Part shown: positions 323 through 3,619 of the stretch, piece after piece | How positions within the stretch are numbered: the first letter of the stretch is position 1 | Layout of the letters: each line of letters begins with the position of its first letter | Source: Escherichia coli | GTDB taxonomy: Bacteria > Pseudomonadota > Gammaproteobacteria > Enterobacterales > Enterobacteriaceae | Assembly (NCBI GenBank): GCA_032372955.1 | Contig: GCA_032372955.1_4725.1 | Strand: one strand, 5' to 3' | Length of the DNA stretch: 64,000 nt | Translations under genes and position numbers: made by a program | Notes under the pieces: generated by a model | Seen by the model: only the letters and a program-made list of their open reading frames with translations | Database searches by the model: none | What the model was told of the DNA's origin: nothing

Positions 323-2916
323 ATGGCCATCATGCTCGATATCGTGAGTTTCGATAGACAGCTCGCAGAACTTCCTTTTACGCCGATTTTGTTGAATGAT
401 TACGATACAAAAGTCGTCGAAGAGAAGAAGAAATTAAACAGTTTTATTACCCGTGTTTACTCCAGCGATACGTTGGATATCACGCCACAATGTGGTTGTG
501 GTTTCTACAATCGTGGTGAGCTACTCGGCACGGTGTGTCCAAACTGTAAAACGGTTGTAACCTACCCAGCAGAACAAGAGATTCGTTCGACGGTTTGGGC
601 GCGTGTTCCTGAAGGAATCGATGCGTTCATTAACCCGTTGGTCCATCTCGTGCTGGCAAGCGAGTTGAATATCAAAAGCTTTGAAACGATGACGTGGCTA
701 ATTGATGCCAGTTACCGTCCAAATGTAAAACGACCCATCGAACTCAAGAACTATCTGGAGCAGCAATTCGATGTATTCGGGATACGGCGCGGTGTAAATA
801 GCTTTATACAGAACTTCGATCGCATCATGGAGATCTTGTATAAAGGACCTACGTTACGTGGACCGAAGAACACGGAGAAAGTTGACACACTACGAGAATT
901 CATCCGTATCCATCGTGATAAGTTCTTCAGTCAGTATATCAGCTTTCCTGCGGCCATGATGTTCGTTATCGAGAATACGCCAACCGGTCGTTATGCGGAT
1001 AGCAAAATGGAAGGTGCGATCGATGCTATCGGTACGTTGAACAGTATCTATCATCCAACAACACCTTTGAGCGCCAGAAAGAAAGAAAACTGGATGGCGA
1101 AAGTGCAATTGAAGCTGCTGCAATACCATGCGGCGATTTTCGATGAGTTCATCGGTAAGAAGAAAGGTATTACACGTAAAAACATATTAGGTACATTACA
1201 TCCATTCACCACGCGTACCGTAATCAGTTCGATAACAGCGAACCATCGTTATTATCATCTGCATTTCCCATACGCGCCATTTACTTTAACCAATAAAGAA
1301 CATATCCAATCCAAGTTATTCCATCGTGGTTATTCGCCAAGAGCAGCACGTGCGTTCGTTGCGGAACATGTTCGCAATTATCATCCGATGATGAGCGAGC
1401 TGCATGATGAGCTTATTGCTGATACACCGTTCGATGGGATTGTGTGTGGTTTTGTTCGAAACCCATCACTTGACCGAAGCAGTAACCAATGTCTTGAAAT
1501 CACCAAGGTTAAACGCGATCCGCAGGATAACACCATCGGGTTAAGCGTGATGATCTTGAAAGGGTCGTTAGGCCCAGTAACGCAGAAATGTTGTTACGAG
1601 GAACTCCCTAATGCGGGAACCTACTTAGAGCCTTGTCCACCAACCACGTCTGGGAACAGAGTGTGGGGCTGAACTAATCATTCAGGTACGGTAAAAGCGG
1701 CAAGGATTGGGGAATCCGCAGCGAAGTCTCCAGAACGGAGATGTGCTCAACGACTATCGCTTACGGGCGTTAGGGCCAAGCGGTGTGGGAAACCACCGGT
1801 CATTTGACCGCCGAAATGGGAGCCCCGACCAGATAATGCTGAGGGTGAAAGATATAGTCTCTTCTTACGTGAAAGACGTAAGCAGTACCTTAGGTACGGG
1901 TATGGAGTAGCGAACCATACTGAAGATTTAGATAATGCAGATTTCAGTTTTTTCAATTAAATCAATAACTTACGATGATTTATTGATACCGTCGGGATCT
2001 GGTTTCTGGTAACAGGAACATAGTTAAAACTCTCTAATTGACGGGAAGTTTCTGTAATCGGACTACACACCAACTCATCGTGGTGACACAGATGAGGGCC
2101 AGCGTAATGAACTGGGTACGGTAAAAGAGGTAGGACGGGAATAATCCGCAGCGAAGCATCTCAACAAGAACGTTCACCTGATTATAGGAATCCACGAATG
2201 TTCGTTAAGATGTGTGCTCACAGACTATCGAAAGACGCGATGTCGAGTAGAGTAGGCTCTGTTAAACACAGACCCAAACGGGAGACTCCTCGCAACGAGG
2301 ATGAAGATATAGTCGATAAACAGCGACGGGGATGCTTAATCATAGGCCCTGCCTTCCGAAAGGAAGAGCTTGGATTCCGTGAATTGCTGGGAAGGGCTAA
2401 GGCCGCTACGCCTCGTAAGAGGAACCGATAAGGTAGAAACAAGGTAGCGGATGTACGCGGCTTCAATGACAATCCCTTCGGGGATGCCTACCGTACATGA
2501 CAATGTTCGATCAGCAGCGAAGCTCCGTTTAGGAGAACGTTCAACGAATACGTGGTCTCAAGCGAGATCCAGCGCGGAAGTCCTACGTTCCATTTGGAAT
2601 ATGGATAAGATGTATTCTGGACATTCCGGTAACACCGGAAGCTGCAGGTAAAGCTGCGGGTATGAGGTAGCGACTCATGCTGAACACTACGATGAACAAC
2701 CATATCGTCCCAGACATTTGGACTGCGAAACATTTCGGGCGTTTTCGACCCGAACTCGGTATGATGGATAATAACGTACCTTTTAAGGTATCTAAGAAAT
2801 GTGAACATCAGTCACCGGTTATTTCTACCATTGACTGTTGGTTCAACGAATTCGTGGAGGGCGATGACGTAGAACCTTATCTTGACGAAATAGAAGCAAC
2901 TAACAACCATTGCTAA
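323..2916 (+). CDS. RNA polymerase beta-prime-like subunit, N-terminal part; proposed exons 323-1565, 1932-1944, 2324-2336, 2692-2916 (about 497 aa)
   Basis: Zn-finger CGCGFYNRGELLGTVCPNC and RKNILGTLHPFTTRTVI resemble bacterial beta-prime; proposed spliced product reads [21 protein letters not shown], matching the universal [15 protein letters not shown] catalytic loop; RBS AGGAG before ATG 323. Confidence 0.55.
1566..1931 (+). ncRNA. group I intron 1 (putative self-splicing, no ORF)
   Basis: Q-like AATCCGCAGC 1713-1722, R-like CTCAACGACTATCG 1746-1759, S-like AAGATATAGTC 1849-1859 (R/S complementary GACTAT/ATAGTC); exon ends in U1565, intron ends in G1931. Confidence 0.55.
1945..2323 (+). 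ncRNA. group I intron 2 (putative)
   Basis: Second copy of GGTACGGTAAAAG and AATCCGCAGC (2143-2152), R-like GCTCACAGACTATCG 2215-2230, S-like AAGATATAGTC 2304-2314; boundaries inferred from reading-frame continuity; 3' splice site unusually close to S element. Confidence 0.4.
2337..2691 (+). ncRNA. group I intron 3 (putative)
   Basis: R-like GTTCAACGAATACG and complementary S-like AAGATGTATTC; 3' module GTATGAGGTAGCGACTCATGCTGAA mirrors intron 1 end; TAGGCCC near 5' end as in intron 1; ends in G2691. Confidence 0.4.
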
Positions 2917-3585: not shown

Positions 3586-3619
3586 CCCTCCCTGCCTTAT
3601 GCAGGGAGGGTTTATGCCG
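3586..3619 (+). promoter_or_regulatory. GC-rich hairpin followed by TTTATGCCG (terminator plus putative late-promoter TATG motif)
   Basis: CCCTCCCTGC / GCAGGGAGGG stem then TTTATGC; member of recurring cassette. Confidence 0.45.

Follow-up and report, generated by a model that had tools for sequence, protein, structure and literature searches.

How can a complete RNA polymerase subunit be made from a gene whose catalytic motif is split apart in the DNA? The question is raised by a 64,000-nucleotide (nt) stretch of an Escherichia coli assembly (GCA_032372955.1, contig GCA_032372955.1_4725.1), referred to here as the window. Judging by homology, its gene at 323-2916 is the N-terminal beta-prime-like subunit of a non-virion RNA polymerase (nvRNAP), the homolog of phiKZ gp55. 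A six-frame search of the 64-kb window found no contiguous DFDGD in any frame, and the open reading frame (ORF) that starts at 323 stops at 1672, giving a read-through product of 449 amino acids (aa). We consider it very probable that the gene is interrupted by three independent, ORF-less group I introns, and that splicing joins two 13-nt micro-exons to the exons on either side. An earlier note on this DNA had proposed that three tandem group I introns split the catalytic motif, and intron cores, U-G splice-site pairs, terminal G residues, guides and intron-minus alleles now all point the same way. The predicted gene model is as follows.

323-1565, + strand: exon 1, 414 codons plus the T of a Tyr codon
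1566-1931, + strand: intron 1, group I, 366 nt, no ORF, terminal G1931
1932-1944, + strand: micro-exon 1, ATAATGCAGATTT, 13 nt, codes (Y)-N-A-D-(F)
1945-2323, + strand: intron 2, group I, 379 nt, no ORF, no P9, terminal G2323
1989-2001, + strand: internal guide of intron 2, CCGUCG followed by GGAUCUG, 13 nt
2324-2336, + strand: micro-exon 2, CGACGGGGATGCT, 13 nt, codes (F)-D-G-D-A
2337-2691, + strand: intron 3, group I, 355 nt, no ORF, terminal G2691
2692-2916, + strand: exon 4, 74 codons plus stop, ending NNHC before the stop

The predicted spliced product and its locus

Joining 323-1565, 1932-1944, 2324-2336 and 2692-2916 produces an in-frame coding sequence of 1494 nt for 497 aa. The splice points are those of the earlier note (after U1565; after G1931 and at both ends of ATAATGCAGATTT; after G2323 and at both ends of CGACGGGGATGCT; after G2691, before ATGAAC), and the predicted product carries the magnesium-binding loop YNADFDGDA across the junctions. 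It is collinear from end to end with phiKZ gp55/56.1 and gapless through the junctions, as an alignment of the 497-aa product had been expected to reveal; the top match in the PDB is 7ogp_A (E=1e-74), the PHIKZ055/PHIKZ056.1 chain of the solved phiKZ nvRNAP. Exon 1 by itself also matches this chain (E=1e-74) and is 37-65% identical to uninterrupted homologs. Nine uninterrupted metagenomic homologs (32-65% identity) align to the spliced product without gaps, NADFDGD being invariant in 9/9, and the two nearest share a gene order of chimallin, an uninterrupted 496-aa gene and a 212-aa gene. The Pfam domain RNA_pol_Rpb1_2 matches the spliced product above threshold at residues 371-428, a segment that spans the junctions; in the unspliced ORF and in the 79-aa ORF that covers exon 4 (2677-2916), the Pfam scan found no polymerase domain. 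Skipping of any exon would shift the frame.

Over its first 4.2 kb the window shares 97% identity with Escherichia phage vB_EcoM_Goslar, and by this measure the source of the window is a Goslar-like nucleus-forming jumbo phage. The gene for chimallin, the nuclear shell protein, lies 5' of the polymerase gene and a 212-aa gene lies 3' of it, the same layout as in Goslar. In the Goslar record, the counterpart of ORF 323-1672 carries the annotation RNA polymerase beta/beta-prime-like subunit and is followed by Intron_gpI, an HNH/NUMOD1 ORF and a small hypothetical gene. The subunit so annotated has 423 aa and lacks DGD (L001:1823-3094); exon 4 appears as a separate 79-aa hypothetical protein, gp185 (L001:4872-5111), whose start is an upstream ATG within the intron. 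Intron 3 is present in Goslar but unannotated, so that the record marks one of the two Goslar introns and therefore gives a truncated subunit. GC-rich perfect hairpins that look like terminator-type stem-loops stand 3' of the chimallin gene (258-283, GGGAGGGAGGG...CCCTCCCTCCC) and of the 212-aa gene (3586-3611, CCCTCCCTGCCTTATGCAGGGAGGG).

Three intron cores and their guides

The Rfam group I intron model RF00028 has a curated gathering threshold of 50 bits, at which a scan of the window gave no match; the matches reported here come from a permissive scan. The earlier note had put this model forward as a check, and its outcome was mixed: introns 1 and 2 match (E=1.8e-5 and 1.6e-9), but all three introns fall below 50 bits and intron 3 reaches 17.6 bits. 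In the Rfam alignments the classical P, Q, R and S elements can be located. As the earlier note had it, AATCCGCAGC starts at 1713 and 2143, and the R/S pairs lie at 1752/1854 and 2223/2309 (GACTAT/ATAGTC) and at 2546/2612 (GAATAC/GTATTC). Folding with P1, P3 and P4 imposed and both strands of P7 left unpaired for the pseudoknot yielded helix sets that are complete from P1 to P9 in introns 1 and 3 and from P1 to P8 in intron 2.

Intron 1, 5' part: P1 1562-1566/1571-1575 (U1565-G1572), P2 1577-1582/1592-1597, P3 1604-1608/1818-1822, P4 1612-1617/1715-1720, P6 1721-1746
Intron 1, 3' part: P7 1752-1757/1854-1859, P7.1/7.2 1758-1810, P8 1824-1845, P9 1864-1882, P9.1 1885-1897, P9.2 1899-1921
Intron 2, 5' part: P1-loop hairpin 1953-1986, P2 2002-2008/2013-2019, P3 2030-2034/2280-2284, P4 2038-2045/2145-2151, P5 2048-2055/2135-2142
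Intron 2, 3' part: P6 2156-2213, P7 2223-2228/2309-2314, P8 2287-2292/2296-2301
Intron 3, 5' part: P1 2334-2338/2343-2347 (U2336-G2345), P10 2340-2343 with 2692-2695, P2 2353-2366, P3 2375-2381/2573-2579, P4 2385-2390/2511-2516, P5 2394-2397/2505-2508
Intron 3, 3' part: P6 2517-2540, P7 2546-2551/2612-2617, P7.1 2553-2571, P8 2580-2606, P9 2624-2640, P9.1 2642-2659, P9.2 2660-2680

In all three introns the terminal U of the 5' exon is wobble-paired to a guide G (U1565-G1572, U1944-G1995 and U2336-G2345), and a terminal G closes 30/30 intron copies. The micro-exons are divided between neighbouring introns: nt 2-5 of micro-exon 1 can form P10 of intron 1 and nt 7-13 form P1 of intron 2, and nt 1-6 of micro-exon 2 are P10 of intron 2 and nt 11-13 P1 of intron 3, so that the P1 and P10 segments overlap in neither. 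The introns may be of the phage IA-like type; the interval between P7 and the 3' strand of P3 holds two hairpins in introns 1 and 2 and one in intron 3.

Intron 2, which the earlier note had taken for the weakest of the three, is instead the best supported. It scores 44.0 bits over its full length (E=1.6e-9 in the local scan, 6.3e-8 across the whole window), and over eight alleles 99.7% of cells in its helices are paired, with one compensated pair. It is the ortholog of the annotated Goslar Intron_gpI and is also similar to a PhiPA3 polymerase-gene intron. One half of its 13-nt guide (1995-2001) pairs with CAGAUUU of the 5' exon (1938-1944) in a 7-base-pair (bp) P1 with U1944-G1995 at the splice site, and the other half (1989-1994) pairs with CGACGG of the 3' exon (2324-2329) in a 6-bp P10 that sets the 3' splice site; the chance expectation of such a guide is about 2e-4. 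In Goslar the exon reads CCGACUU and pairs with GAGUCGG where the window guide has GGAUCUG, two silent exon changes (GCA to GCC, GAT to GAC) being compensated, which is direct evidence of selection on the pairing. The short 3' tail that had counted against the intron reflects clean loss of P9: the Goslar copy keeps a 14-bp P9 stem holding a 336-aa I-HmuI-like ORF with HNH_3 and NUMOD1 domains, and comparison of Goslar L001:3452-4516, the endonuclease ORF, with window 2319-2323 reveals a precise deletion in the window that takes the whole stem. A P1 formed by AAAUC near the 5' end was considered and rejected, as GGAUCUG gives the U-G pair, adjoins the P10 segment and covaries with the Goslar exon.

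Intron 1 matches RF00028 over its full length at 30.4 bits (E=1.8e-5 local, 7.4e-4 whole window), and across eight alleles 98.0% of cells are paired, with five compensated pairs. Its P1 joins GGGU and the first intron nucleotide C to GGCCC, and its 4-bp P10 joins UAAU of micro-exon 1 to (G/A)UUA. By blastn it is 70-76% similar to introns of SPO1-like Bacillus phages, of coliphage DNA polymerase genes, of phiKZ and of PhiPA3.

RF00028 matches intron 3 partially, over P3-P6 (17.6 bits, E=0.13 in the local permissive scan), and the whole-window scan returned introns 1 and 2 only, with no intron 3 match. RNAalifold on the intron 3 family (six sequences from three lineages) independently recovered P2-P9.2; with P7 added, 98.3% of cells are paired and 31/99 pairs have changed on both sides. 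Shuffled alignments gave 6.4 such pairs (0/500 reached the observed count) and slid controls 1-2. P7 itself occurs in three compensated versions, GAAUAC/GUAUUC, GAGUA/UACUC and GAUCAU/AUGAUC. Introns 1 and 2 show little divergence compared with this family. At the splice sites, GCU and the following UA pair with UAGGC (P1), and AUGA of exon 4 pairs with UCAU (P10, 4 bp). The family includes an intron at another site, here called iA, which is 72% identical to intron 3; both follow GCU, and P10 is absent in iA copies. An extended, bulged P1 of intron 3 that would use exon GGGG was rejected, as the copies on contig L004 do not support it.

Two further observations concern this intron. At L004:5602-5625, the ortholog of window 2324-2342, the 5' exon of intron 3 ends in GCC and the splice-site pair would be C-G, not the near-universal U-G; no alternative boundary keeps the Ala codon. 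RNAalifold also pairs UAG of the guide (2343-2345) with CUA at 2687-2689, two nt before the terminal G, in competition with P1, and the outer pair covaries (UA/AU/GC) across the three lineages.

The introns are related in parts. As the earlier note had observed, introns 1 and 3 have a common 3' hairpin module and TAGGCCC near their 5' ends. By nhmmer, the 5' halves of introns 1 and 2 are linked (E about 1e-6), as are intron 3 and the 3' half of intron 1 (E about 1e-8), and a GGTACGGTAAAAG(C/A)GG element recurs in the P5 extensions of introns 1 and 2 (1686-1698 and 2113-2129). All three thus resemble mosaics of related modules. At its 3' end, intron 1 has a hairpin module (1897-1927, GGGTATGGAGTAGCGAACCATACTGAAGAT) that is identical at 31/31 positions to the iA hairpin of L004 (L004:5566-5596), suggesting recombination or module exchange between different introns. 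The same GTAGCGA-loop hairpin is also found in phiKZ-like and LucasX introns. Profiles of the three intron families found no further copies in the 64-kb window.

Other architectures were considered and rejected. A twintron does not fit units that are separated by coding micro-exons, each with a complete core and guide and each found alone in some genome; an intein does not fit a frame that stops at 1672 inside intron 1, with no open frame crossing the block. Pseudogene and separate-subunit models were also rejected and are weighed below.

Natural alleles and competing readings

Searches of viral and metagenome contigs recovered 11 Goslar-clade alleles besides Goslar (12 in all). Once the predicted introns are removed, 12/12 read YNADFDGDA and all differences are synonymous; flanking sequences are 93-99% identical. 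The alleles fall into five intron configurations.

Introns 1, 2 and 3: seven alleles (window, L005, L008, L011, L012, L017, L018)
Intron 2 with the 336-aa HNH ORF, and intron 3: Goslar
iA and intron 3: L004
iA only: L014, L015
Intron 1 only, with a 322-aa HNH ORF: L013

Intron 1 is precisely missing in Goslar, L004, L014 and L015; intron 2 in L013, L004, L014 and L015; and intron 3 in L013, L014, L015 and L016. Each of introns 1-3 is therefore precisely absent in some close relative, with the predicted junction intact. When the window is compared with its three-intron relatives, divergence is 6-10% at four-fold sites of flanking genes and 0-5% in the introns; overall the introns differ 3-10 times less than those sites. 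Sequence and comparison establish that these are introns, where they begin and end, how their guides pair, that their structure is constrained and that their presence is polymorphic.

From these patterns we infer splicing itself, together with catalysis, its autonomy, the order of removal and any exon skipping. Each intron would fold its own ribozyme core. Its guide would form P1 with the final 3-7 nt of the exon before it, with a U-G pair where cleavage occurs, and P10 with the initial 4-6 nt of the exon after it, and the intron would be excised by the standard two-step, guanosine-initiated transesterification. Each 13-nt micro-exon would be shared out between P10 of the preceding intron and P1 of the following one, and the joining of exon 1, the micro-exons and exon 4 would restore the YNADFDGDA loop in a 497-aa protein.

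Several points weigh against this explanation. All three introns lie below the curated Rfam threshold (44.0, 30.4 and 17.6 bits for introns 2, 1 and 3); at the same motif, introns of phiKZ-like T2P (80.4) and LucasX (54.7) pass, and Goslar intron 2 scores 46.9. P1 is short, using 4 exon nt in intron 1 and 3 in intron 3, and intron 2 has no P9. The low divergence of the introns could stem from recent spread, not constraint. A collection of 5.8 billion proteins holds no spliced-form protein of the Goslar clade and only the 449-aa read-through ORF. Finally, under the conditions of one long-read transcriptome study, no splicing of the introns predicted in phiKZ was detected; demonstrating it in vivo has thus not always been easy for this phage family.

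The alternative that survives best is that splicing is neither autonomous nor constitutive. RNA chaperones of phage or host, a fixed order of removal, or skipped, frame-shifted transcripts might limit or time the polymerase. Introns 1 and 3 share a UAGGCCC guide region as well as the 3' hairpin module, and the 13-nt exons give no spacer between adjoining ribozymes. In phage Twort, two similar introns surround a 23-nt exon that is skipped, and T4 intron splicing depends on translation, from which the phage nucleus is free. The three guides are distinct, however, and the P1 and P10 segments do not overlap, which favours correct pairing. We think such dependence rather unlikely, and it would refine the three-intron explanation without excluding it.

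It is very improbable that one or more of the introns, though genuine, are defective in splicing (intron 2 without P9, or intron 3 with its 3-nt exon pairing), leaving the three-intron allele dead or crippled. The loss of P9 and the very short P1 helices would fit this, as would the fact that several three-intron alleles come from assemblies and not from cultured phages. However, cores, guides and exon codons are all intact in seven independent alleles with three introns (93-99% identical); the introns change less than neutral sites; the subunit holds the catalytic loop of a polymerase that the phage family needs; and cultured Goslar needs introns 2 and 3 spliced.

Least credible of all is that only the Goslar-annotated intron 2 is real, that units 1 and 3 are spacers or decayed, and that the subunit consists of separate 449-aa and 79-aa (2677-2916) polypeptides that assemble with no covalent DFDGD loop. 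In its favour, natural splits of polymerase subunits into several genes occur in jumbo phages, public annotation gives exon 4 its own gene and introns 1 and 3 score under the Rfam cut-off (30.4 and 17.6 bits). Against it, the Asp triad would either be lost or lie in 13-nt fragments that cannot be translated, intron 3 has 31 compensated base pairs, close relatives lack intron 1 or intron 3 precisely and keep the frame, the micro-exons change only synonymously, and all homologs are collinear across the motif.

Origin, precedents and significance of the intron array

The three-intron gene also raises the question of how one motif came to be hit so often. The Goslar clade has four insertion sites within ten codons, after nt 1, 9, 14 and 27 of a 27-nt block; elsewhere, the phiKZ-like intron lies between N and A and that of Xanthomonas phage LucasX just before the P-N-A-D codons. 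The earlier note had seen no recognisable homing endonuclease, which holds for the window, whose intron ORFs (67, 77 and 66 aa) contain no endonuclease domain, but orthologs of introns 1 and 2 do carry I-HmuI-like HNH ORFs. In the L013 ortholog of intron 1, a 322-aa ORF occupies the P1 loop as an insertion of about 1 kb relative to window 1566-1571; it has an I-HmuI-like NUMOD domain and weak, sub-threshold HNH_3 matches. The L013 and Goslar HNH proteins are 27% identical to each other. The window copies of introns 1 and 2 are clean derivatives without an ORF. Silent differences cluster in and near the 27-nt target (1547-1565, 1932-1944 and 2324-2336) and track configuration, the variants being CTTGAAAGGG with intron 1, CCTTAAGGGA with iA and CCTCAAAGGT in Goslar, a pattern that would be expected of co-conversion during homing or of selection against endonuclease recognition. 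We infer a homing history in which mobile introns with I-HmuI-like HNH endonucleases serially invaded one extremely conserved 27-nt target and introns 1 and 2 later lost their endonuclease ORFs; repeated homing into one target followed by ORF loss is the most likely course.

A bolder version of this history can be drawn, though we think it rather unlikely. The 27 nt of YNADFDGDA might be a contested target of co-infecting Goslar-like phages, attacked by at least two different I-HmuI-like HNH endonucleases (of the intron 1 and intron 2 lineages), and the ORF-less three-intron allele might be stacked armour, each intron destroying the recognition site of a rival endonuclease without cost to the coding sequence. 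Ectopic insertion independent of an endonuclease, for instance by reverse splicing, would have moved the intron 3 family, which has an exon guide of only 3 nt and lies after GCU at two different positions 18 nt apart, and the ribosome-free phage nucleus would let three ribozymes fold 13 nt apart.

Parts of this arrangement have precedents. It was already known that jumbo-phage polymerase genes can carry group I introns, that phiKZ gene 55 has one in this same motif, that some phage genes contain three introns and that organelles have micro-exons flanked by group I introns. The phiKZ gene 55/56 intron lies in the same gene and catalytic motif, is of the same class and has an associated HNH ORF, and the phiKZ-like T2P intron (80.4 bits against RF00028) has the GGGTATGG...CCATACTGAA 3' hairpin module in common with the window; unlike the window, phiKZ has a single intron, between N and ADFDGD, and no micro-exons. 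Goslar Intron_gpI (Goslar_00187/00186) has a core 96.8% identical to window intron 2 and the same site after GA(Y)TT, but keeps its 14-bp P9 stem with the 336-aa ORF, and intron 1 is absent from Goslar. Phage Twort has three group I introns in one ORF and a very short internal exon between related introns, whereas the window has two consecutive 13-nt exons in one 9-codon motif and introns that are individually present or absent among relatives; short exons of 23 nt (Twort) and 34 nt (Coxiella) and other three-intron phage genes are on record. DNA polymerase and terminase genes of Bastillevirinae carry 2-3 IA-type introns per essential gene, often with endonuclease ORFs (PMC11878797); there the introns are spread along the genes, and we found no report of exons under 20 nt or of several adjacent hits on one motif. 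In PhiPA3, a group I intron with a nicking HNH endonuclease sits at conserved catalytic Asp residues of a chimallivirus polymerase gene, gp210, and the endonuclease harms intron-minus rival phages, a competitive role shown experimentally (Birkholz et al. 2024). That gene encodes a different subunit, the virion RNA polymerase beta subunit, and has a single intron. Mitochondrial cox1 genes also have neighbouring group I insertions at a conserved catalytic residue, with micro-exons such as a placozoan exon of 1 nt (PMC5436844), but these are organellar, not viral, and have no two consecutive micro-exons. Literature searches (DFDGD/group I intron/phage, micro-exons, Chimalliviridae introns) found neither two consecutive 13-nt exons in one catalytic motif nor multi-site intron polymorphism of the Goslar-clade kind described before.

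The corrected gene model gives the whole clade a normal 497-aa subunit, where public annotation has a truncated one without the Asp triad. The phage and bacterial exons found for comparison measure 23 and 34 nt; the consecutive 13-nt exons, each made up wholly of P10 and P1 segments, are shorter still and offer a natural system for asking how adjoining group I ribozymes avoid exon skipping. Among genomes with over 93% identity, ten codons hold four sites and five configurations, and phiKZ-like and Xanthomonas phages add two sites. Intron gain, loss of endonucleases and exchange of modules are recorded here with unusual density, in the same phage family where an intron endonuclease was recently shown to be a weapon between co-infecting phages.

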